Positions 3,781-31,938 of a DNA stretch of 32,000 bases are shown here, in pieces. The number at the start of each line of letters is the position of its first letter. Within the stretch, counting starts at the first letter, position 1. This DNA comes from Pectobacterium aquaticum (lineage in GTDB: Bacteria > Pseudomonadota > Gammaproteobacteria > Enterobacterales > Enterobacteriaceae), in the NCBI RefSeq assembly GCF_003382565.3, contig NZ_CP086253.1:372519-404518 (forward strand), given 5' to 3'. Both the position numbers and the translations under genes were made by a program. Below the pieces are notes generated by a model. That model saw only the letters and a program-made list of their open reading frames with translations. It was not told where the DNA came from and made no database searches.

Positions 3781-6498
3781 ATGGACAAGGAAGACATCAT
3801 CGGCCGGCGCTATTTCCAGTATTGGGGAAAAGCAAAAAGATCGACAGATGCGCTGGAGGGGGATGATTATCATCTGCTGCCTTATCACGGTTTGGATGTG
3901 GCAGCCTGTGGCTATTTCCTATTAAAGGGAAACTATTTTCAGGCTAACCATGTGCTGCGTGAACTGGCAGCGGGCGATGATGATGTCGCTGCATGGTTTG
4001 CGTATTTTTTGGCCTGGCACGATATCGGAAAATTTGCCCGTGGTTTTCAGGGCAAATATGCCAACCCTGATTCCCCGTTAGTCCAGTATTCGGGGCAGTC
4101 AGGGAGAGACAGGCATGACGATCTGGGCTTCTGGCTATGGACGATGCGTGATGACATTCCCACTTTATTTCCTTTAGGGACGAAAAAGCCCACTTCGGTG
4201 GTGAAAAATACGCTGGAGATCTGGCTGAACATTGTTACCGGGCACCACGGCAAACCGGCGGCGGAATGCAAAGGCAGTTTGGCTTTTCATCGTGATGACT
4301 ATCTGGCGGTAGAGCATTACCTGCATGATCTGGAAACGTGTTTTCCCGATGCGTCTACGCTCCCTGCCTGTTTCGCTGATAAAGGCTGGCGAAACCGGCT
4401 GAAGCAGCAAAGTTGGGCGCTGGCTGGCTTGACGGTGCTGGCAGATTGGCTGGGCTCGCGCCAGCAGGATTTCTGCTATTGCAGTACGCCGATGCCACTC
4501 GAAACCTATTGGCGTGAACACGCGCTGCCGACGGCAGAAAGGGTCATCTCGCGTTTGCCACGATCCCCGTCTCCTGCCCCTTTTCATTCTATCCCACAGC
4601 TCTTTCCGTTTATCCAGCGGCCAACGCCGCTGCAACAGCACGCGTTGGAGGCTGATATCTCCGCTGACGGGCCGCAGCTTTTCATTCTGGAAGACGTGAC
4701 TGGCGCGGGGAAAACGGAAGCGGCAATGATACTGGCGCATCGGCTGATGGCGCAGCAAAAAGCGAGCGGTATTTATGTCGGCCTGCCGACAATGGCGACG
4801 GCGAATGCCATGTATCTGCGGCTTGCCAAGGCCTACCGTGCATTATATTCACCAGAGCACAACCCTTCTCTGATGCTGGCGCACGGGGCGCGGCATATGT
4901 CATCAGCGTTTATGCAATCGCTGTGGGAAGGTGACAGTCAGGGGCAGGCGCAGTATGACAAGGAAGAAAATGCCGCCAGCAAAGACTGCAACATCTGGTT
5001 TGCGGACTCGCGCAAGAAAGCGCTGCTGGCGGATATCGGCGTGGGTACGCTCGATCAGGCGTTGATGGCAGTGATGCCGTTTCGCCACCAGTCGCTACGG
5101 GTGTTGGGGCTCCAGAACAAGTTGCTGATTCTGGATGAAGTACATGCGTATGATGCCTACATGAGCAAGCTGATCGAGCTGTTGATTGGCTTCCATGCGC
5201 AGCAGGGTGGTAGCGTGATTATCCTCACCGCGACGTTGCCGCTTAATCTGCGGGAAAAGCTGACGTGGGCGTTTTCGCAGGGGATCGCGTGTGAGGCTGT
5301 GCAGCCTGACCCCGACGCGGCTTATCCGTGGTTGACGCAGCTAACGCGTGAGGGACTACGGGAAACGCTGTTGGATACGCGGGCGGAAGTGAGACGCGAG
5401 GTCAAGATTGGCTGGTTGACGGAACGGTTGCAGGGCATTGAACGCGTGAAGGCTGCCGTGGCGGCAGGGCAATCGATCTGTTGGATCAGGAATACGGTGG
5501 ATGACGCCATCGCCGTGTATCGCCAGCTCATTGAAGCGGGGATTGCAGAGGAAAATACGTTGCTGTTCCACAGCCGCTTTGCCTTTTGCGATCGTATGGC
5601 GATTGAGGAACAGGCGCTGACGTGGTTTGGCAAAGACAGCACGCCGGAACAACGTGCTGGCAAGGTGCTGATTGCCACGCAGGTTGTCGAGCAGTCGCTG
5701 GATATTGATGTTGATAACATGATTAGCGATCTTGCGCCGATCGATCTGCTGATTCAGCGTGCAGGGAGGCTACAGCGGCATATCCGGTTGCCCGACGGGC
5801 GTCGTAAAACTGAAATGGACACTGCACCGCTGAAGGATGAGCGCCCGGCGGCGGTGCTGCACATTATGGCACCGGTCTGGCAGCCGGAAGCAGGAGCCGA
5901 CTGGCTGGGTGATGAACTGCGCAACAGCGGCTACGTTTACTCCGATCATGCTGCACTGTGGCGCACGCAGGCGATATTACGCGAACACGGTGCGATAAAA
6001 ATGCCGGAAGCGGCGCGGCTGCTGATCAACAGCGTGTATGAAGAACAGATCGCGGTGCCTCCGGCTCTGGAAGCGATAGCCTGCACGGTTTTGGGGAAAA
6101 ACTACGGTCAGCGTTCTTTCGCACTACAGTCTGCGCTGGCGTTGGTACACGGTTACTGTGCTCAATCCAGCGAAGCAGGCTGGAGCGATGCGGTGGATAT
6201 CTCCACCCGTATGGGAGAGGAAACGCTGGATCTGTATCTGGCATGGAAAGCGGAAAATGACGGTGAACTTCCACAGCCTTACGCCACATCGGACACCTTC
6301 GCCTGGGAGCAAAGCCGCGTGCAGGTGCGCTTAAGTTGGTGGCAGAAATGTAAAACTGGATTACCAATATTGGAAGGTGACGCATTGGAGCGGTTTCGGC
6401 AGCAATTACACCGTCCACAGGCCGAAGTGCTGCTGCTGAATCGGGGTGAAACCCACGCGTTTTATAGCGAGCGAGTGGGGTTGATGCTCAGTCAATAA
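3781..6498 (+). CDS. cas3: Type I-E Cas3 nuclease/helicase (HD domain + SF2 helicase)
   Basis: 905 aa. HD motifs: HLLPYHGLDVAA, WHDIGKF, VTGHHGKP. Helicase motif I LEDVTGAGKTEAA, motif II LILDEVHAYD, ILTATLP, VATQVVEQSLDID, QRAGRLQRH. It is colinear with E. coli YgcB/Cas3. Confidence 0.97.
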   Translation: MDKEDIIGRRYFQYWGKAKRSTDALEGDDYHLLPYHGLDVAACGYFLLKGNYFQANHVLRELAAGDDDVAAWFAYFLAWHDIGKFARGFQGKYANPDSPLVQYSGQSGRDRHDDLGFWLWTMRDDIPTLFPLGTKKPTSVVKNTLEIWLNIVTGHHGKPAAECKGSLAFHRDDYLAVEHYLHDLETCFPDASTLPACFADKGWRNRLKQQSWALAGLTVLADWLGSRQQDFCYCSTPMPLETYWREHALPTAERVISRLPRSPSPAPFHSIPQLFPFIQRPTPLQQHALEADISADGPQLFILEDVTGAGKTEAAMILAHRLMAQQKASGIYVGLPTMATANAMYLRLAKAYRALYSPEHNPSLMLAHGARHMSSAFMQSLWEGDSQGQAQYDKEENAASKDCNIWFADSRKKALLADIGVGTLDQALMAVMPFRHQSLRVLGLQNKLLILDEVHAYDAYMSKLIELLIGFHAQQGGSVIILTATLPLNLREKLTWAFSQGIACEAVQPDPDAAYPWLTQLTREGLRETLLDTRAEVRREVKIGWLTERLQGIERVKAAVAAGQSICWIRNTVDDAIAVYRQLIEAGIAEENTLLFHSRFAFCDRMAIEEQALTWFGKDSTPEQRAGKVLIATQVVEQSLDIDVDNMISDLAPIDLLIQRAGRLQRHIRLPDGRRKTEMDTAPLKDERPAAVLHIMAPVWQPEAGADWLGDELRNSGYVYSDHAALWRTQAILREHGAIKMPEAARLLINSVYEEQIAVPPALEAIACTVLGKNYGQRSFALQSALALVHGYCAQSSEAGWSDAVDISTRMGEETLDLYLAWKAENDGELPQPYATSDTFAWEQSRVQVRLSWWQKCKTGLPILEGDALERFRQQLHRPQAEVLLLNRGETHAFYSERVGLMLSQ

Positions 6499-6961
6499 AT
6501 GTCTCAACAGGCACATTAAAGTAGCGAGAAAAATCCTTAACTTGCTGTAATGTCATGGTTCGCTTACCGTTAATAATGTCAGAGATGACGCTTTGCGTTG
6601 CAATTTGCTTTAAATCTGACTGTTTCAGCCCTCTTTCTTCAATAAAAAAAGCTAAGGCTTCAGCCTGACTGACGTGGGGCACATCTCGGTGTTTCTTTTC
6701 ATATTCATAGACTCTGTGCGCGATGAGCTCTGCAAAAGTGGCTGGAATATCATTGACATCAGAAGAATAGAGGTAAAGTTGATTGATGCACTCCATTCTT
6801 TCCTGAAGATCATTATCGTCTTCAATAGGTTCCATACAGGCAGAGAGTAAAACAGACAAGCTGTTAAGCTGCTCAGAGGCTTCCTGAAGCAGAAGCGGTA
6901 AATTTTCGATGAGCTCACTGATTCCTACAGAATGGTTAGAACCCAGAGATGTATTTCGCAT
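6488..6961 (-). CDS. HigA-like XRE-family HTH antitoxin (157 aa); its toxin partner is decayed
   Basis: The C-terminal HTH LKQSDLKQIATQSVISDIINGKRTMTLQQVKDFSRYFNVPVETFID parallels HigA at 17665-18081 (LTQSDFEAEIGKKSLVSRILNGERTLTLDHMRALAKRFDIPVSAFVD) and E. coli HigA. SD AAGGTGA is present. The 3' end overlaps the cas3 stop by 11 nt, convergently. Confidence 0.8.
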   Translation of the reverse strand: MRNTSLGSNHSVGISELIENLPLLLQEASEQLNSLSVLLSACMEPIEDDNDLQERMECINQLYLYSSDVNDIPATFAELIAHRVYEYEKKHRDVPHVSQAEALAFFIEERGLKQSDLKQIATQSVISDIINGKRTMTLQQVKDFSRYFNVPVETFID

Positions 6962-7164: not shown

Positions 7165-7923
7165 TTAAACGAGACCGAAGCCTATTTTTATGCGGTAAAT
7201 GACATCACTAATAGAGCCACGTATACCCAAATTTCTTAAATTAACGTTTTCGTTGGGTAGAGCAGCTAAAAATATCTCCATGTGGATTCGAATGTCATCG
7301 GGTATTTCTATTGCGTTTTCAGTTAGTTGACCAGAAAGTCGAATGACATCGTTGCGATGTTTATTTATGGTTTTGGTATCGATGGTTTCACCTGCTTTTT
7401 TACGATTTGAAAGATCGAGCCAAGCATGCATTTTGAAGGGAATTAGTCGGTCTGCACCGATGTACGATAAGCGTTCAGTTTGTTGAAGACCATTCTTCAG
7501 AAAAGCGTAGTAATTGTCGTCGAGCAGAATAGCCGAAAGGCTAGAAATATCCTCTCCCGTTGGTATGGGAATGATAGATGCATCTTTAGGTGGAGTTATA
7601 CCTTCTGGTGAACGTGAAAAAATCTCTATTTGTACTGGATAAGTGCTGTCTTCAGGGTTCTTAAAACGATAGAAGATTGATTTTTCGCCACCGCTTTGGC
7701 GATGTTCATAGCCTCCTGCTTTGATGAACTCCCAGAATTTATTCAAAAACTCAGGGGTCAAGGTTTCAATGATCAAAACGATGTCTAAATCTTTAGTCGA
7801 TCGGAATGGCTCCCCGACCTCATCGAGAGTAATCCAGGAGGCTACTCCGCCGATCAACACATATTGATCTTGATAATCCTTGAAATATTCACCAAAAAGG
7901 CCTAGTCCGCGAATTTCATCCAT
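7165..7923 (-). CDS. Nucleotidyltransferase-fold protein, AbiEii/DUF1814-like putative toxin (252 aa)
   Basis: NTase signature: YVLIGGVAS (G25-G26), FRSTKDLDIVL (D45xD47), a later acidic strand VQIEIF, and a C-terminal helical region FKMHAWLDLSNRKK...KHRNDVIRL. It overlaps the upstream gene by 22 nt in operon fashion. The region is AT-rich compared with the cas genes. Confidence 0.75.
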   Translation of the reverse strand: MDEIRGLGLFGEYFKDYQDQYVLIGGVASWITLDEVGEPFRSTKDLDIVLIIETLTPEFLNKFWEFIKAGGYEHRQSGGEKSIFYRFKNPEDSTYPVQIEIFSRSPEGITPPKDASIIPIPTGEDISSLSAILLDDNYYAFLKNGLQQTERLSYIGADRLIPFKMHAWLDLSNRKKAGETIDTKTINKHRNDVIRLSGQLTENAIEIPDDIRIHMEIFLAALPNENVNLRNLGIRGSISDVIYRIKIGFGLV

Positions 7924-8933
7924 GGGTAATTTTCCTTAATTTCATCGAGCGATAGTTGAATTCTTTCATCAGGATTATCCTTAAAAGCCAGATAAAGGGA
8001 TACTTCATCAACGACATTAGTTGAAGATTTAGGGCTACGATAGCGCCAGATCTCGATAGTGGCTTTTGCACTGTCAATATCCGTCACCTCTTTAAACTGG
8101 CCGCTCTCCAAAAATGTTGTGTAGATTTTCTGCGTCATCGCGAATACAGGGTGTCGGCCTGATGAAAGTAGGGTGTATTTCGCCAGAGCAGTATCACCGC
8201 TATAACATACGTCTTTACCTAATTTTGGGATTTTGTTCACCATAACCGTTTTCTTAACAGGGCTACGCATCATCGGCAGGGCTTTTTTAAAGGTATCTTT
8301 TTGCGAATGGGTAAAAGTATAACGTTTGGTTGTAAATGCCTCTTCAGTATCAGGAATGAGTATATCTGCGTTGATTAGTTCTGTAGTGACTTTGGAAAGC
8401 GTTACCCTGCTGTACTTATAAGGTGCCATGAGTTCATAAGCGTTGTAGGCTAAACCAGATTGGTTCCATCCGTCATAAAGTAACCGGATTAGTATGGCTT
8501 GGGTTGCGGGAGAAAATTCAGTGCCCCTTTCCTTATTCTGTTTCCTCATTCTGAATGCTTCGCGCAAATCCATAGCTAATTCAGGAATAAAGAATTGCCG
8601 GTCAATGGAGATGAAGTTAATTTGTTGTTCAATAAGGCTTTTCCGTTCTACAAAGGAGAGCGTATTAGTAACGTAAACGACAACCCTTTCCGTTTTTTTC
8701 TCGATAACAGCGAGGCGTTTTTTTAGGGCAACAATACCTGGGTATTCTCCATCGTGCTGGATGATGGCCAACAGAGGTATGAGTGCACCGTTTGGCAGGT
8801 AGATGTCTAATTCGAAGAACTGGAAAGCATCCTGGATGCTGAATGGGACATTGAGCTTTGTTTTAGCAGCCTTAATTTTAAATCCTAATGCAGATTGAAT
8901 ATAGTTTTTTAACCCGGTTATTTTCATTGTCAT
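7902..8933 (-). CDS. wHTH protein, AbiEi/COG5340-like putative antitoxin/regulator with an extra unassigned N-terminal domain (343 aa)
   Basis: SD GGAGAG lies 5 nt before the ATG. Residues ~141-192 look like a winged HTH (SPATQAILIRLLYDGW...YSRVTLSKVTTELINADILI). The C-terminal part (CYSGDTALAKYTLL...VVDEVSLYLAFKDNPDERIQLSLDEI) resembles AbiEi-type C-domains. Residues 1-135 carry no motif I can assign. The family assignment is from memory of these families, not from a search. Confidence 0.65.
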   Translation of the reverse strand: MTMKITGLKNYIQSALGFKIKAAKTKLNVPFSIQDAFQFFELDIYLPNGALIPLLAIIQHDGEYPGIVALKKRLAVIEKKTERVVVYVTNTLSFVERKSLIEQQINFISIDRQFFIPELAMDLREAFRMRKQNKERGTEFSPATQAILIRLLYDGWNQSGLAYNAYELMAPYKYSRVTLSKVTTELINADILIPDTEEAFTTKRYTFTHSQKDTFKKALPMMRSPVKKTVMVNKIPKLGKDVCYSGDTALAKYTLLSSGRHPVFAMTQKIYTTFLESGQFKEVTDIDSAKATIEIWRYRSPKSSTNVVDEVSLYLAFKDNPDERIQLSLDEIKENYPWMKFAD

Positions 8934-9007: not shown

Positions 9008-9190
9008 GAAAAGATATCACAGGTGTTTTGTCTGTTATTGCTGCTTTGGCAAAGGAAAGATATAAAGGGGGTTTTGCAAGTGCCGCCACACCCCGCCTGC
9101 ACTATCCTAGTGCTGAGCCACAAACGTGAGCCATCTCTCTGGCGTCGCGGGCTGAATGCGTTAAAAAAGAGACTGTAGAACCAGCCGTAA

Positions 9191-11429
<2,239 letters not shown>

Positions 11430-12509: not shown

Positions 12510-13244
12510 ATGGATAACTATTTGGTCTTCCAGGTCTACGCCCCGCTAGTGTCGTGGGGGGAAGTGGCGGTCGGTGAGGTGCGCCACACCTCGACGGTAC
12601 CCAGCCGTTCGGCGCTGCTGGGGCTGTTGGCGGCGGCGCTAGGGATCCGGCGTGACGATCGAGCCGCGCTGACGGTTTTCAACCAGCATTACCATGTGGC
12701 GGTGCGACCGCTTTCCGATCGTGAAACCTGGCTGAATGACTACCACACGGTGCAGATGCCGAAAGAAAACCGCAAGGTGCCGCGCTACACAAGGCGTGAT
12801 GAATTGCGGCCGGAGGCAGGGCAATCGCTCGAAACCATGCTGACCTCACGCGAATACCGCTGTGATGCCTATTACCATATCGCCATTAGCGCCACGCCGG
12901 ATGCACCTTACTCGTTAAGTGCGCTGCGGGATGCACTGTTATCACCGGTGTTTACGCTTTATTTCGGGCGTAAAAGCTGTCCGCCTGCGCTGCCGCTGGC
13001 ACCGCACCTGTTTGCTGGCACGTTGGCCGAGGTGTGGCAGTTAGCAAAGCAGACGCCTGCGCTGAACGATCTCGCGTTAGAGATGATCGGCCGTGCCGAG
13101 GGCGTGTGCTACTGGGAGCAGGAAACCGACACGGGGCTAACAGAGCAATATCGGGTCTCACGAAACGATCAGCCCGCCGATCGACGGCGCTGGCAGTTCA
13201 CCTCCCGCGTGCAATATGTCGGCAGTGAAAAGGGAGATGAATGA
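12510..13244 (+). CDS. cas5: Type I-E Cas5e/CasD
   Basis: 244 aa. YLVFQVYAPLVSWGE...VPSRSALLGLLAAALGIRRDD parallels E. coli CasD (YLILRLAGPMQAWGQ...PTRSGLLGLLGACLGIQRDD). Confidence 0.94.
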   Translation: MDNYLVFQVYAPLVSWGEVAVGEVRHTSTVPSRSALLGLLAAALGIRRDDRAALTVFNQHYHVAVRPLSDRETWLNDYHTVQMPKENRKVPRYTRRDELRPEAGQSLETMLTSREYRCDAYYHIAISATPDAPYSLSALRDALLSPVFTLYFGRKSCPPALPLAPHLFAGTLAEVWQLAKQTPALNDLALEMIGRAEGVCYWEQETDTGLTEQYRVSRNDQPADRRRWQFTSRVQYVGSEKGDE

Positions 13245-13891
13245 TGTATTTTTCCAGAATAACGCTGAAAACCAATGTGTTGCCGCGCGTGATGGCGGAA
13301 AAGCGGCTGCACGCGGGGGGCTATGCCAGCCACCAGTGGCTCTGGCAGCTTTTCCCTGACCAGCCGCAGCGGTCGTTCTTGTTCCGCGAGGAAGCGCATG
13401 AAACCAAAAGCCTGTTTTACCTGCTTTCTGAACAGGCTCCACAGGCGGGTCATAACCTGTTTCAGGTGGAAACCAAACCCTATCAACCTCAGTGGCGTGA
13501 CGGTATGACGCTGGCGTTTTCGCTACGAGCTAATCCGGTGGTCACGCGGGACGGCAAGCGTAGCGATGTGTTGATGGATGCACGTCATCAGGCGAGAGCT
13601 GCCGGGCTATCTGGCGTGGAACTGTGGCAGCACCAGCAACGACGCGCCCATGACTGGCTGGTGCGCCAAGGGGAAAACGCAGGCTTTGCGGTGTCGTCGT
13701 GTCGGGTCGATGGGTATCAACGCCATCGCCTGAATAAGCCCGGCCAGTCGGCGGCGATTATGTTCAGCAGCGTGGATTATGACGGCGTGCTTCACATTAC
13801 GGATGCTGAACGCTTTGCGACGGCTGCCCGACAAGGGTTAGGAAAAAGCAAAGCATTGGGGTGCGGCCTGCTGCTGCTGAAACGGGCGTAG
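13241..13891 (+). CDS. cas6e: Type I-E Cas6e/CasE crRNA endoribonuclease
   Basis: 216 aa. It overlaps the cas5 stop (ATGATG). The motif WLWQLFPD and the glycine-rich C-terminus GLGKSKALGCGLLLL match E. coli CasE (GIGPAKSMGCGLLSL). Confidence 0.93.
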   Translation: MMYFSRITLKTNVLPRVMAEKRLHAGGYASHQWLWQLFPDQPQRSFLFREEAHETKSLFYLLSEQAPQAGHNLFQVETKPYQPQWRDGMTLAFSLRANPVVTRDGKRSDVLMDARHQARAAGLSGVELWQHQQRRAHDWLVRQGENAGFAVSSCRVDGYQRHRLNKPGQSAAIMFSSVDYDGVLHITDAERFATAARQGLGKSKALGCGLLLLKRA

Positions 13892-14836: not shown

Positions 14837-15130
<294 letters not shown>

Positions 15131-15214
15131 GTTAGCGATCTTTAACAATATGGAAAAATCGGTGGGATTTTTTATGCCGAAAAAAGTATTATAAAACAAT
15201 GCTCTACTTTTAGA
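15131..15214 (+). promoter_or_regulatory. CRISPR leader (AT-rich)
   Basis: An 84-nt AT-rich stretch between the cas2 stop and repeat 1. It ends in ...CTACTTTTAGA directly before the repeat, which resembles the leader-repeat junction of E. coli I-E arrays. AATCAATAAGTTA (15122-15134) fits the IHF consensus WATCAANNNNTTR but spans the cas2 stop, so its role is uncertain. Confidence 0.7.
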
Positions 15215-17258
15215 GTGTTCCCCGCGCCAGCGGGGATAAACCGCCAGTTTTAACGCGGCACATACCGAGCGTGCATGTGTTCCCCGCGCCAGCGGGGATA
15301 AACCGCGTTGCATTCTTAACGTTTTTTACTGGTACCAGTGTTCCCCGCGCCAGCGGGGATAAACCGTGCTAGTTATATGTATAACATTGTGCATGCACGT
15401 GTTCCCCGCGCCAGCGGGGATAAACCGCTGTGTGTGCAGCAGGGAGGGATGAGCCATGAGTGTTCCCCGCGCCAGCGGGGATAAACCGCATTGATTCATC
15501 GACTAGTGTTGACATCTTAGGTGTTCCCCGCGCCAGCGGGGATAAACCGGAATCATAAATCGTGGCCACAGAATTTTCCATGTGTTCCCCGCGCCAGCGG
15601 GGATAAACCGATGCGGATCTGTCAAATAGTTGGTATATCGGTGTGTTCCCCGCGCCAGCGGGGATAAACCGCAAGTTGTTAACGGCATCCACTAAACCGC
15701 CTGGTGTTCCCCGCGCCAGCGGGGATAAACCGCTACGCATGTGCTTCTGGGCTTCTCCTAATCCGTGTTCCCCGCGCCAGCGGGGATAAACCGTATTGGA
15801 GAAAAACCCAAGCAAGCTATTACAAGTGTTCCCCGCGCCAGCGGGGATAAACCGTAGGCGTTGGATGGCATAGCCAAACGCATTGAGTGTTCCCCGCGCC
15901 AGCGGGGATAAACCGTCCAACCAGATGTTCTCCCGCTGCCAGAAATAGTGTTCCCCGCGCCAGCGGGGATAAACCGCCGATAATCATCTACTCCCCCTTA
16001 TGCTGCGGGTGTTCCCCGCGCCAGCGGGGATAAACCGAAACGCGCACGTCTGTATTTAAGTCTGTTAAAGTGTTCCCCGCGCCAGCGGGGATAAACCGTC
16101 AATGCAGGTGTAGATGATACTGTTATAGTAGTGTTCCCCGCGCCAGCGGGGATAAACCGATCGAAATCGCGGTTACTTGTTCACAGCGTATGTGTTCCCC
16201 GCGCCAGCGGGAATAAACCGCAATTGCGCTAACTTCTGTGCGTAATTTTTCCGTGTTCCCCGCGCCAGCGGGGATAAACCGTTAGATCCTCGCGCAGTTG
16301 AACTTGTCAGAGAGTGTTCCCCGCGCCAGCGGGGATAAACCGATCTTAACAACACTCCACCATCACCATTAAGAGTGTTCCCCGCGCCAGCGGGGATAAA
16401 CCGTCTGATGGTGGTGTTAGTTCAAGTGTAGTTCAGTGTTCCCCGCGCCAGCGGGGATAAACCGTAAAATAATGGAATCATCCGAATTTAAAGAATGTGT
16501 TCCCCGCGCCAGCGGGGATAAACCGCAGCGGCCAGCCGTTAACCCAACGCGCCCCGCGTGTTCCCCGCGCCAGCGGGGATAAACCGCACGTCCCGTACAA
16601 TTTCGCGCCGATGCTGGCGTGTTCCCCGCGCCAGCGGGGATAAACCGCTGCCGACCGATGTCCGTTCTCACATCGAGCGGTGTTCCCCGCGCCAGCGGGG
16701 ATAAACCGAATACTACTAGCTCTAAAATCAGCAGCATCATGTGTTCCCCGCGCCAGCGGGGATAAACCGCAGTTGGCCTTCATCATCAGGATCGCCGGCA
16801 TGTGTTCCCCGCGCCAGCGGGGATAAACCGCTGAACAAACATGGCAACCTGACTCGTAACAAGGTGTTCCCCGCGCCAGCGGGGATAAACCGTCTGCATC
16901 AAATCGCAGGCTATCTGCTGAAATGTGTTCCCCGCGCCAGCGGGGATAAACCGCAGACAGAACGGGTTATGACCGGTGACGTTCGGTGTTCCCCGCGCCA
17001 GCGGGGATAAACCGGGGTATGATGGCTTTCTCACGGCTCTCTCTGTGTGTTCCCCGCGCCAGCGGGGATAAACCGCCTGTCGATTAATGGCAAGTCATTC
17101 ACCACTGGTGTTCCCCGCGCCAGCGGGGATAAACCGGCTCTGGCAGCTTCTCAGGAATTTTCCAGCGAGTGTTCCCCGCGCCAGCGGGGATAAACCGAAT
17201 GGCCTTTCGCTCTGCCTTTCCATTCTCAGGTGTTCCCCGCGCCAGCGGGGATAAACCG
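15215..17258 (+). CRISPR. Type I-E CRISPR array, 34 repeats / 33 spacers
   Basis: The 29-nt repeat GTGTTCCCCGCGCCAGCGGGGATAAACCG recurs from 15215 to 17230 with a 61-nt period. Two steps are 62 nt, because spacers 1 and 27 are 33 nt and the rest are 32 nt. All copies are identical except repeat 17 (16192-16220, G21 to A). The leader and cas2 are on the 5' side, so transcription and new-spacer polarity run on the plus strand. Confidence 0.99.
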
Positions 17259-17320
17259 AGTAGTAGAGATGTAAATTACACATGTTTCCATATTGTCAAC
17301 TCGTTCCGTTTACGGCATAG

Positions 17321-17339
17321 TGTTTCCAATTTGGAAACA
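17321..17339. promoter_or_regulatory. Perfect palindrome upstream of higB (candidate HigA operator)
   Basis: TGTTTCCAA-T-TTGGAAACA has 9-bp perfect arms and lies 18 nt before the higB ATG. An extra half-site TGTTTCCA is at 17283-17290. A possible -35 TTGTCA (17293-17298) lies upstream. Confidence 0.55.
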
Positions 17340-17356
17340 ACAGGGAAGGCGTCAGA

Positions 17357-17668
17357 ATGCATGTTATTTCGCGGGCACCTTTCGACACTGCAACCACTCA
17401 GTTTCCGAATCAGGCGGCAGTACTTGATGACCTATATCGGGTTATCAAACGCGAAATGTATGCAACGCCGGACGATATGAAAAAACGCTTCCCCAGTCTG
17501 GATAGGATGAAATACCGGGAAAAATGGTGGGTTATTGATATTGGTGGCGGGCATCTTCGAGTGATGTTTTTTGCTGATTTTGAGCGAGGGAAAATCTTCA
17601 TCAAGCACATCACATCCCATGCAGAGTACGACAGGCTGACAGAGTATTACCGGAGGAATAAAGAATGA
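17357..17668 (+). CDS. higB: HigB toxin (RelE-superfamily mRNA interferase)
   Basis: 103 aa. MHVISRAPFD...RFPSLDRMKY...WVIDIGGGHLRVMFFADFERGKIFIKHITSHAEYD is colinear with E. coli HigB (MHLITQKALKD...FPSLDNFKY...NVGGNELRVVAMVFF...YIREVMTHKEYD). It overlaps higA by 4 nt (ATGA). Confidence 0.9.
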   Translation: MHVISRAPFDTATTQFPNQAAVLDDLYRVIKREMYATPDDMKKRFPSLDRMKYREKWWVIDIGGGHLRVMFFADFERGKIFIKHITSHAEYDRLTEYYRRNKE

Positions 17669-18081
17669 TGTACGCAGACGCCATCAAGGCAGCTAACAAC
17701 CTGACGAGTATCGTACCATTCCTTGGAGGCAGCACCTCTCGTAAGGATTATGAGGATGCGCTGAAACTAACCGAATACCTGATCGAGAGTGAACCTGACA
17801 GTCCGCTAATCGATATGCTGACTGCCAAAATTGACAAATACGAAGATGATGCACCGGAGTTTGCAGCCTTCAACGAACGTGTTAAAGCACTCCCAGCCGG
17901 TATCGCTTTACTGCGCGTCCTTATGGATCAGCATCAGCTAACGCAGAGTGATTTTGAAGCTGAGATTGGTAAAAAGTCTCTGGTATCCCGCATTCTAAAT
18001 GGTGAGCGCACTCTAACGCTTGATCACATGAGAGCGCTTGCTAAACGATTCGATATTCCTGTGAGTGCTTTTGTTGATTGA
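17665..18081 (+). CDS. higA: HigA antitoxin (XRE-family HTH)
   Basis: 138 aa, the same length as E. coli HigA and colinear with it: ...APEFAAFNERVKALPAGIALLRVLMDQHQLTQSDFEAEIGKKSLVSRILNGERTLTLDHMRALAKRFDIPVSAFVD. Confidence 0.92.
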   Translation: MMYADAIKAANNLTSIVPFLGGSTSRKDYEDALKLTEYLIESEPDSPLIDMLTAKIDKYEDDAPEFAAFNERVKALPAGIALLRVLMDQHQLTQSDFEAEIGKKSLVSRILNGERTLTLDHMRALAKRFDIPVSAFVD

Positions 18082-18097
18082 CACGACTCACTGATAC

Positions 18098-18126
18098 GTG
18101 TTCCCCGCGCCAGCGGGGATAAACTG
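18098..18126 (+). CRISPR. Isolated degenerate terminal CRISPR repeat (repeat 35)
   Basis: GTGTTCCCCGCGCCAGCGGGGATAAACTG matches the consensus at 28/29 positions (C28 to T). It is in the same orientation as the array, 839 nt after repeat 34 and 16 nt after the higA stop. Confidence 0.9.
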
Positions 18127-18307
18127 GGCTTATACCCCTTGTTGCATGTTGGTCTAAATATTCTCCGCACGGAACCAAATCTCGCTTCTGGCTGGCGCGA
18201 TGGGGGATTGCGTGTCAGTATTAGAGTACGCCATTTTTTTGCCCACCGTCACGGTGATGTGCTATGCCCATAATTTTGTCTTCCATACGTTACCGTAAGG
18301 AGGTGAT

Positions 18308-18766
18308 ATGAAAGTTGAAGCCGCAGAGTCGTCCGTTTTTGCCAGCCAGCAGGTGATGGCGAAGCGTTCTACCGAGCATGCAGAGAAAGCGGCGCTGTCC
18401 GAACAACTTCAGTCTTATCAGGCGGGCAGCGGTGCCGTTCCTGCTGGTCAGACGACGCGGTATGATTTCACCCGCATTAGCCCTGCCGATTTGTATGAAA
18501 CAGTAGAAGGCCTTGTCAGCAGTGGGCGGTTGGGGCGTGAAGAAGGGTCCGCGCTGTTGGGTTTTGTCTCATCGCCGAGAGCCGAAGGGGGAAGTATTCC
18601 GCCTTCCAACGTGTTCCAGCCGATTAATGTTTTCGACACCATTCAGCAAGGTGTCGCGGGCGCATCATCCCGTAGTGAAGTGCAAAATACCGAAAGCCTG
18701 CAGCGTGCCGCCGAGGCGTTAAACCGCTTTCAGGGGCAGGTCTCCAGTATTAGCGTTTACGTCTAG
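18308..18766 (+). CDS. Hypothetical protein (152 aa), Ser/Gly/Ala/Gln-rich
   Basis: It has a strong SD (TAAGGAGGTGATATG) and a hairpin downstream. I recognise no family. Confidence 0.6.
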   Translation: MKVEAAESSVFASQQVMAKRSTEHAEKAALSEQLQSYQAGSGAVPAGQTTRYDFTRISPADLYETVEGLVSSGRLGREEGSALLGFVSSPRAEGGSIPPSNVFQPINVFDTIQQGVAGASSRSEVQNTESLQRAAEALNRFQGQVSSISVYV

Positions 18767-18804
18767 CGCATGTCGGCACGCATAATTTGATGAAGTCCCT
18801 TTTT

Positions 18805-31583: not shown

Positions 31584-31592
31584 TCCTCAGGT

Positions 31593-31613
31593 CTCACCTC
31601 TCACCTCTCACCT
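31593..31613. repeat. 3 x 7-nt tandem repeat (CTCACCT)
   Basis: CTCACCTCTCACCTCTCACCT lies directly after the M48 peptidase stop. Confidence 0.85.
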
Positions 31614-31938
31614 CGATCTAACCCTACCTTATGCCGATCGTGTGTGGTTTCACAGTACACGATCCCTTTCCTGTTAGATGCTTGAACAAAAAAAACACGA
31701 TTTGCTGTTTTTATAAACGAGAATGTCGAACGAAAAGCATGAACTACGTAGCCAGTCGATTAACAAAAATGCGTTAAATATCATCCTATTAAAAACTATC
31801 TGTAGAATCTCTCGCGATAAATAAAAAAATCAGAGAATAATATCTTTTTATTATTAGCTTGCTTATGTTTATTGGGATTTTTCCTAATAGGCATTAAAAT
31901 CGCTGCTTCACGACTTCATGATTACCGACGAGTTATTT

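Follow-up and report, generated by a model that had tools for sequence, protein, structure and literature searches.

We analysed a 32,000-nucleotide (nt) stretch of Pectobacterium aquaticum DNA (assembly GCF_003382565.3, contig NZ_CP086253.1, positions 372,519 to 404,518 of the forward strand), hereafter the window, and studied the higBA toxin-antitoxin (TA) module that lies between two repeats at the end of its type I-E CRISPR array. A preliminary description of this DNA had placed the module in a spacer slot, with either insertion into an old spacer or capture by recombination between repeats as its origin, and had proposed that it may stabilise the array and the locus against deletion. The features of the locus are listed below in window coordinates, with lengths of proteins in amino acids (aa).

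3781-6498, cas3, and from 9230, cse1: genes of the type I-E cas operon, of which cas2 is the last gene
14837-15130, + strand: cas2, from its translation; the exact protein is annotated Cas_Cas2CT1978
15131-15214, + strand: CRISPR leader, 84 nt, a single copy in the window by blastn
15215-17258, + strand: CRISPR array of 34 repeats and 33 spacers
17259-17282, + strand: junction segment specific to Pectobacterium, its first ~10 nt diverged between lineages
17270-17280: small palindrome TGTAAATTACA inside the junction segment
17283-17290: half-site TGTTTCCA, related to the operator palindrome
17293-17321, + strand: putative sigma-70-like higBA promoter (-35 TTGTCA at 17293-17298, 17-nt spacer, -10 CATAGT at 17316-17321)
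17321-17339, + strand: perfect 9+1+9 palindrome TGTTTCCAATTTGGAAACA (TGTTTCCAA-T-TTGGAAACA), the presumed HigA operator, adjoining the -10 element
17357-17668, + strand: higB toxin gene, 103 aa, Pfam HigB_toxin PF09907 (E=7e-22, 77.9 bits against a cut-off of 27)
17665-18081, + strand: higA antitoxin gene, 138 aa, Pfam HTH_3 PF01381 at residues 84-134, a C-terminal helix-turn-helix (HTH)
18082-18097, + strand: 16-nt segment between higA and repeat 35, of which CACGAC(T) is common to all other higBA loci and the rest is (T)CACTGATAC
18098-18126, + strand: repeat 35, found by pattern search with one mismatch (C28T, ending ...AAACTG)
18127-18158, + strand: fossil spacer of 32 nt, followed by a decayed terminal repeat at ~18159-18182 and then the conserved trailer CGCTTCTGGCTGG
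18308-18766, + strand: orf152, a conserved downstream gene of 152 aa, used as the anchor for locus comparison

The repeat GTGTTCCCCGCGCCAGCGGGGATAAACCG occurs in 35 copies on the + strand of the window, compared with 0 expected from a pattern search of shuffled sequence. Repeats 1-34 are spaced 61 nt apart from 15215 to 17258, and all true spacers of this array (33/33) are 32-33 nt long. From the end of repeat 34 at 17258 to the start of repeat 35 at 18098 there is a gap of 839 nt (17259-18097), in which higBA is flanked as AGTAGTAGAG...CACGACTCACTGATAC. Although it lies between two repeats of the same orientation, this interval is too long for a type I-E spacer (about 32-33 nt). RNA folding predicted intact hairpins for both repeat 34 and repeat 35. 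We found the same interval with identical junctions in five complete independent assemblies, and a sixth, short contig has the right-hand junction of the window; since these assemblies agree, the interval is no assembly artefact. Elsewhere in the array, repeat 17 (16192-16220) carries G21A (GCGGGAATAAACCG), which alters the last stem base beside the expected Cas6e cleavage site.

Within the interval, the higB stop and the higA start overlap by 4 nt (ATGA), the toxin gene comes first, and both genes are on the array strand. HigB aligned with E. coli HigB (PDB 5IFG_A) over residues 1-100 (E=8e-16) and HigA with E. coli HigA (PDB 5IFG_B) over residues 3-138 (E=5.6e-38). The HigB domain, the C-terminal XRE-type HTH of the antitoxin, the toxin-first operon and the promoter palindrome, at the sequence level, place the module among the HigBA systems. 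By homology, HigB would be a translation-dependent mRNA endonuclease, and HigA would neutralise it and repress the operon at the palindromic operator beside the -10 element. The geometry given in the preliminary description held in full: the end of repeat 34, the position, C28T change and orientation of repeat 35, the 839-nt gap, the palindromic operator, higB and higA on the array strand (both genes with Pfam support), and the 16 nt between the higA stop, which ends at 18081, and repeat 35. Its term "terminal repeat" for repeat 35 needs a correction. It is the last intact repeat, and the fossil spacer and the decayed repeat come after it.

We then compared alleles of the two genes within Pectobacterium. 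The 11 higB alleles differ by 34 synonymous and 6 nonsynonymous changes, and the 14 higA alleles by 41 and 7, giving ratios of nonsynonymous to synonymous polymorphism (pN/pS) of 0.048 and 0.051. No frameshift or stop was found among these 11 higB and 14 higA alleles, which bears out the claim that the module is intact. Thus, higBA is under purifying selection, and it is very probably active, with a HigB that is presumably toxic.

Plasmid copies of the module in Klebsiella, Enterobacter and E. coli are 73% identical to window ~17284-18059, and they have insertion sequence (IS) elements as flanks and no CRISPR nearby. The -35 element, the half-site and the palindrome are all kept in these plasmid homologues, and the palindrome is conserved in the Enterobacter plasmid copy as well as in Pectobacterium loci that have lost CRISPR-Cas (type E, below). 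Homology with the plasmid cassette begins only at ~17283. From the extent of this homology, the predicted mobile unit is roughly 17283-18081, nearly filling the space between the repeats. The closest higBA outside Pectobacterium was found in a read assembly of Salmonella enterica subsp. diarizonae (L038 7693-8417; HigA 80% identical), on an integrative island of the P4-like kind that encodes an integrase, AlpA and a DUF927 primase, and there are no CRISPR repeats near it.

A terminator scan predicted none between the array and higB, nor after higA, and folding of 18175-18250 gave no convincing terminator (z = +0.8). The Rfam search found no match in or near the higBA interval. The sole Rfam match in the window is RF02737, "Soft rot Enterobacteriaceae Rev 13 asRNA", at 31591-31938 on the - strand (269 bits), which fits the placement of the window in Pectobacterium.

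For comparison, an orf152 scan with one genome per species covered 12 Pectobacterium species, and exact-protein look-ups added ~25 more strain loci. In total, ~35 distinct Pectobacterium loci (numbered with L) were compared, with uneven sampling of species. At nrdDG, the window is 98.0-99.5% identical to L002-L005, L020, L022, L024 and L025 (assemblies GCA_002869945, GCA_0033825xx/0033826xx and GCA_022507345); its identity to the representatives of the 12 named species does not exceed 96.4%. All compared loci are located between a bactofilin gene and orf152, which itself has no Pfam or PADLOC match. Five architectures were found, listed here with two further arrangements.

Type A, the window type (window, L001, L002, L003, L004, L005, L025): cas2, array, higBA, 16 nt, ...CTG repeat
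Type B (L020 and L022 of the window's species, L008, L013): one array with the same ...CTG end repeat and trailer, without higBA; as an exception, the L013 array ends in a canonical repeat
Type C (L006, L033, L035, L044): CRISPR1, higBA, 88 nt, decayed repeat, AT-rich island with a lipoprotein-like gene, cas2' (a fragment, aa 48-97) and leader', CRISPR2, ...CTG repeat
Type D (L007, L016, L027, L034): as type C, with a ParE/HTH cassette in place of most of higB and an intact higA
Type E (L009, L014, L028-L031, L036): no cas genes and no arrays; bactofilin gene, relic repeat, higBA, relic repeat, orf152
P. parmentieri L040: array 1, ParE/HTH, higB, truncated higA, decayed repeat, short cas2' and leader', array 2
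L043: array, higBA, repeat, ParE/HTH cassette, repeat, IS4 element

These architectures identify repeat 35. In P. versatile, P. carotovorum, P. polonicum and P. parmentieri, higBA is flanked by CRISPR1 on one side and by CRISPR2 on the other; the latter array comes with a cas2 fragment and a leader copy of its own, and its end repeat is the ...CTG repeat followed by the trailer of the window. The leader gave two blastn matches (leader and leader') in L006, L033, L027 and L040, compared with one in the window. The fossil spacer, decayed repeat and trailer also follow the ...CTG repeat in the type B, C and D loci. In repeat 35 we recognise the conserved repeat at the end of the array on the orf152 side, which is CRISPR2 in the two-array relatives and the sole array in strains without higBA. 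In these four species the lone repeat of the window thus corresponds to a second array with its own leader, the very situation in which the preliminary description had said its account would fail. Its statement that the module is flanked as a spacer would be is right in that two repeats of the same orientation bound the module; it fails on the right-hand side, where the repeat is the end of a second array in relatives and the junction is a lineage-specific scar.

Several observations on the two-array loci stand beside this. The AT-rich island (L006 6545-7057, - strand, with equivalents in L033, L035, L044, L027 and L034) encodes a lipoprotein-like protein of 167-170 aa that has only a sub-threshold match to DUF6726; the island occurs neither in the window nor in P. 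parmentieri. In the type C loci L033 (11794-13530) and L035 (11808-12751), nearly all CRISPR2 repeats carry C14T (GCGCTAGC) and the CRISPR1 repeats are canonical. The last CRISPR1 repeats before higBA in these two loci are multiply mutated, which is typical of decay at the trailer end.

The two junctions of higBA have different histories. On the left, a CRISPR repeat precedes every higBA copy. Types A and C and part of the type E loci have it in intact form; in the remaining type E loci it is decayed. The order is always repeat, ~10 diverged but alignable nt and the conserved promoter region, and it is homologous throughout the genus, including genomes without CRISPR-Cas at this site. Because of this homology across the genus, the left junction between repeat and higBA is old and has arisen once. 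On the right, every lineage other than type A has 55-88 shared nt after higA and then a decayed repeat, and this 3' flank, missing in the window, is common to at least five species, including ones without CRISPR-Cas at the locus. Homology of the window ends 6-7 nt past the higA stop and is followed by 9-10 nt, (T)CACTGATAC, found only in this lineage.

The comparison with L033 by blastn gave two collinear blocks: window 17230-18087 corresponds to L033 9569-10423, and window 18098-18800 to L033 13501-14207. In the window, 9-10 nt replace 3,077 nt of L033 (equivalents: 3,444 nt in L006 and 2,298 nt in L035). Parsimony favours a loss in the window lineage of all sequence between a point 6-7 nt past higA and a point 9-10 nt before the CRISPR2 end repeat, because the missing flank occurs in several species, including ones without CRISPR-Cas at this site, and the two-array layout reaches P. 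parmentieri. Since the join has no homology, it was illegitimate. Either a scar of the deletion or a leftover from the 3' end of the last CRISPR2 spacer may account for the 9-10 nt. With a left junction found throughout the genus and a lineage-specific scar on the right, neither insertion into an old spacer nor capture by repeat recombination was borne out for the window.

Taken together, these data suggest the following history. A self-regulated type II higBA module would have resided at the trailer end of the first type I-E array since before the Pectobacterium species diverged, and in most lineages it lies between CRISPR1 and a CRISPR2 with its own cas2 fragment and leader copy. In the window lineage, one illegitimate join, either a deletion in cis or a one-sided homologous exchange, would have removed the ancestral 3' flank, the decayed repeat, the AT-rich island, cas2', leader' and every CRISPR2 spacer, and brought the end of higA within 9-10 nt of the CRISPR2 end repeat. 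Because this collapse of CRISPR2 would have fused higA near the end repeat, the spacer-slot geometry would be a by-product and not a spacer-like acquisition. The module itself would be a selfish addiction cassette that persists on its own account and is gained, lost and reshuffled at the flanking repeats, with no measurable protection of the array or the cas genes. We give this reading as a whole a probability of about 0.7.

Some observations weigh against this history. The direction of some events is inferred by parsimony, and the strains sampled from the window's species are all of the window type or of the type without higBA, with no two-array strain among them. Among the sampled CRISPR2 arrays no last spacer ends in ...CACTGATAC, and a one-sided homologous import into a single array, closed by an illegitimate join, would leave the same scar as a deletion in cis. 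Outside the window-type loci, no last spacer ending in TCACTGATAC was found in any of the arrays fetched. Furthermore, the segment after higA in type C aligns with the array end "...AATAAACTG" (also given as "...GGGATAAACTG"), the fossil spacer and the fossil repeat. As this segment resembles a decayed array end, the ancestral cassette may already have sat in a repeat-bounded slot before a ...CTG-type repeat, which for the deep past comes near the picture in the preliminary description.

The same sampling bears on another explanation, that a single-array strain like L020 or L022 recently acquired the cassette in its last spacer through a repeat crossover on the left and an illegitimate join on the right, with 9-10 nt of the spacer left over. 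Only single-array types were sampled in the window's species, spacers 32 and 33 of the window are spacers 30 and 31 of L022, and repeat 35 is preceded by 9-10 nt that might represent a spacer's 3' end. In addition, L001 shows that the locus moves between species (nrdDG 93.4% identical, cassette with 9 differences). We consider this explanation unlikely. Other lineages have a left junction homologous to that of the window, down to the ~10 nt that follow the repeat, so it was not made anew; the right side needs the same illegitimate join as the loss of CRISPR2, plus an extra transfer step; and no last spacer ending in CACTGATAC turned up in the arrays fetched. One blastn match, between window 18067-18124 and a spacer and repeat of L022, was set aside as chance similarity (19/26) plus the repeat itself.

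The locus that moved deserves a description of its own. In assembly GCA_037136255.1 (L001, L018, L032 and L045), nrdDG is only 93.4% identical to the window, which indicates a different species. Its Cas2, HigB, HigA and orf152 proteins are 100% identical to those of the window, and the 839-nt cassette differs by 9 single-nucleotide polymorphisms (SNPs); all coding SNPs (8/8) are synonymous. Because nrdDG is so diverged while the proteins are identical and the cassette has only 9 SNPs, this points to a recent exchange of the array-higBA region between species.

Complete repeats on both sides of the cassette in the window, together with the ...CTG type of both the upstream repeat and the remnant after higA in type C, would also fit an integration of the ~0.8-kb fragment by Cas1-Cas2 as a giant spacer with duplication of the repeat. 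The type I-E integrase uses ~33-bp prespacers at the leader-proximal repeat, and higBA lies at the trailer end. The two flanking repeats do not derive from one array by duplication on integration, given that repeat 35 comes with its own trailer and is the end of CRISPR2 in relatives, and extra nucleotides that do not belong to the cassette are present at both junctions. On position, size and junction structure we dropped this explanation, which has next to no chance of being right.

The collapse of CRISPR2 leaves the question of whether higBA serves the CRISPR-Cas locus. Seven loci that have lost the cas operon and the arrays at this site (L009, L014, L028-L031 and L036) keep an intact higBA between relic repeats. 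Conversely, four type B strains without higBA, two of them in the window's species, still have complete cas operons and 40-77 repeats in their arrays. Any two type A arrays have just 0-4 spacers in common, in short collinear blocks, whereas their cassettes differ by only 0-9 nt, and the spacers adjoining higBA differ in every type A strain. Spacers 32 and 33 of the window are followed by higBA; in L022 the same two (30 and 31 of 57) are followed by 26 normal spacers. Because L022 continues in this way, presence and absence of higBA within one species fall exactly at the repeats.

Since seven loci keep higBA without CRISPR-Cas and four strains keep CRISPR-Cas without higBA, the comparative data argue against a stabilising role for the array or the locus, and higBA would protect at most itself. 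The differing spacers beside the module also failed to bear out this role. In the comparison of the window array (15215-17258) with L001-L004, L020 and L022, the trailer-end spacers are not conserved, and collinear blocks of 2-5 spacers lie at different positions. This variation implies heavy internal deletion or recombination, and not purely polarised growth.

A functional coupling to CRISPR-Cas was also considered. Here Cas6e would free the higBA transcript from the precursor CRISPR RNA (pre-crRNA), or a CRISPR RNA (crRNA) would repress the toxin, so that loss of the cas genes or the array would release HigB, and the module would act as a safeguard of the CreTA kind or as a stabiliser of the locus. 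The orientation of higBA, the lack of a predicted terminator between the array and the module and the intact hairpins of repeats 34 and 35 make read-through from the array possible, and the repeat just upstream of the higBA promoter is kept in every lineage. Against a coupling, the seven loci without cas genes and arrays retain an intact higBA under purifying selection, and the four strains without higBA hold full cas operons and long arrays. The promoter and operator are the cassette's own and are also present in plasmid copies, which have no CRISPR near them. The ParE cassette next to higBA in relatives lies on the opposite strand, which speaks against a general need for co-transcription. 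Among the spacers and the fossil spacer, the best complementarity to the cassette (17259-18097) was 19/32, compared with a shuffled mean of 16.9 and maximum of 21. With no match above this null, a guide of the CreTA kind found no support, and functional coupling as a whole is highly improbable.

On another reading, higBA shares a defence hot spot with CRISPR-Cas and would act independently against phages, by abortive infection, with its position among the repeats incidental. In PADLOC, HigB is a match to PD-Lambda-2_A (E=9e-14), and PD-Lambda-2_B is matched in its N-terminal part by HigA (E=6e-13). Two positions of the locus repeatedly hold TA genes, which come from several different families, and outside Pectobacterium the nearest homologue was found on a P4-like integrative island. 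On the other side, of the 402 positions in the PD-Lambda-2_B model HigA spans just 9-117, and the third gene is absent; to our knowledge, no phage phenotype has been described for this higBA module. We regard this reading as doubtful, though it ranks above the other alternatives, and it can coexist with selfish persistence of higBA after the collapse of CRISPR2.

The junction comparison showed that every cassette copy is bounded by full or decayed repeats, and the order of TA cassettes varies between species. From the repeat-bounded cassettes, the CRISPR2 collapse, the survival of higBA and 70-nt direct repeats around a second cassette, one may suggest that CRISPR repeats act as portable recombination handles, at which higBA and the unrelated ParE/HTH cassette, in the manner of giant spacers, would be excised, swapped, re-ordered and re-inserted between arrays and strains, and TA addiction would bias which deletion products survive. 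This idea is tentative and, in our view, not likely to be right.

Two arrangements concern such cassettes directly. In L043 (10379-15634, CP102749.1), two TA cassettes occupy consecutive repeat-bounded slots: higBA follows the array and is separated by a repeat (12561-12589) from HTH/ParE, which is on the - strand; another repeat (13524-13552) comes next, and after it an IS4 transposase and orf152. This order is the reverse of that in type D and P. parmentieri. In L027 (also in L007, L016 and L034), 70-nt direct repeats that are 91% identical (9017-9086 and 9909-9978) bracket the ParE_toxin/HTH cassette, which lies on the - strand and replaces most of higB. Each consists of a CRISPR repeat variant (...AAACCC) and ~40 nt, and an extra decayed repeat is present at 9843-9869 in L027. 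The structure of this cassette looks like a duplication from single-crossover integration.

A second hot spot for TA genes lies in the cas3-cse1 gap, which holds, depending on the strain, PemK/MazE, HicA/HicB or HigB-like/HTH pairs (L042, L049, L045, L033, L043, L046), in agreement with published gene maps, as far as the passages seen go (PMC6963963). In the window, a HigA-like HTH gene of 157 aa (6488-6961, - strand) overlaps the 3' end of cas3 by 11 nt. This gene is paired with a 120-aa HigB_toxin gene in L043, L046 and L034, and the toxin gene is absent in the window, L048, L050 and L051. Because the partner toxin is missing, the gene in the window is an orphan antitoxin. Beside it, between cas3 and cse1, two genes of 252 and 343 aa (7165-7923 and 7902-8933, both on the - strand) have no Pfam or PADLOC match.

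For annotation, these results mean that a kilobase-sized "spacer" followed by a lone repeat should be annotated as a collapsed second array, not as some unusual kind of acquisition; array callers will otherwise break such loci up or give them the wrong orientation. The comparison of loci also offers a natural experiment, one that bears on the popular view of TA modules as guards of CRISPR-Cas loci. In Pectobacterium the TA module persists after the immune system is gone, and spacers turn over heavily in spite of it, which argues for selfish persistence over guardianship. The value of the case lies mainly in this counter-evidence and in the hint of repeat-mediated exchange, or shuffling, of the recurring repeat-bounded TA cassettes. 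If true, this reading of repeats as handles, together with TA addiction, would explain why higBA outlives CRISPR-Cas itself.

To place the module among known systems, we compared it with related TA and defence elements. With PD-Lambda-2 (PADLOC PDLC03979, PDLC03982) it shares a HigB-like toxin and a HigA-like N-terminal domain. It differs in its HigA of 138 aa, compared with a B model of 402 positions of which 9-117 are covered, and in having no third gene. Because the long B protein and the third gene are missing, higBA is not a PD-Lambda-2 member.

CreTA of the Haloarcula type I-B system, which Li et al. are said to have described in 2021, reportedly uses a crRNA-like RNA, CreA, that guides Cascade to repress creT, and has reportedly been proposed to make the cas genes addictive. 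Like CreTA, higBA is a TA element inside a CRISPR-Cas locus with repeat-like flanks. Unlike CreTA, both higBA partners are proteins with their own operator, no complementary spacer was found in the array, and the module survives loss of the cas genes, as the seven cas-less loci with intact higBA show.

The E. coli higBA module (ygjNM) was shown to encode a translation-dependent mRNA interferase that is neutralised and autoregulated by HigA and is induced in a Lon-dependent manner, and the inverted gene order, toxin first, is part of the definition of HigBA (PMC2814082). The module in the window resembles E. coli K-12 HigBA (YgjN/YgjM; PDB 5IFG, 6KML, 5YCL) in its toxin-first operon of 103 and 138 aa, its near full-length alignment, the C-terminal HTH of HigA and a palindromic operator at the promoter, the last recognised here from its letters. 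It differs in that the E. coli module is not beside CRISPR, and the operator sequence and exact residues are not the same.

The closest parallels come from Pectobacterium itself. In P. atrosepticum, VapC/VagC lies between CRISPR2 and CRISPR3 of the type I-F locus, according to the passages seen (PMC6963963), the example of TA genes between arrays that the preliminary description had given. Both this pair and higBA are type II TA pairs between two arrays of one locus in the same genus; the TA family, CRISPR subtype and repeat differ, and both type I-F arrays are intact. For type I-E, the passages seen of Arizala and Arif 2019 place TA genes at two sites, one downstream of cas2 and flanked by CRISPR-1 and CRISPR-2, the other in the cas3-cse1 interval, with RelE/ParE between CRISPR-1 and CRISPR-2, HigB in P. 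parmentieri, and HicAB and PemK beside cas3 (PMC6963963). These passages give gene maps only, and in them there are no repeat-bounded cassettes, CRISPR2 collapse, survival of higBA without CRISPR-Cas, junction sequences or ParE cassette bracketed by 70-nt direct repeats (PMC6963963). The genus, locus and positions of those modules, as far as these passages go, are the same as ours (PMC6963963). The window shares the chromosomal site and homologous junctions with the two-array relatives, its second array being reduced to the end repeat, and higBA is thus an inter-array TA module. The association of TA modules with Pectobacterium type I-E loci was already published in 2019, and the window is a further instance of it.

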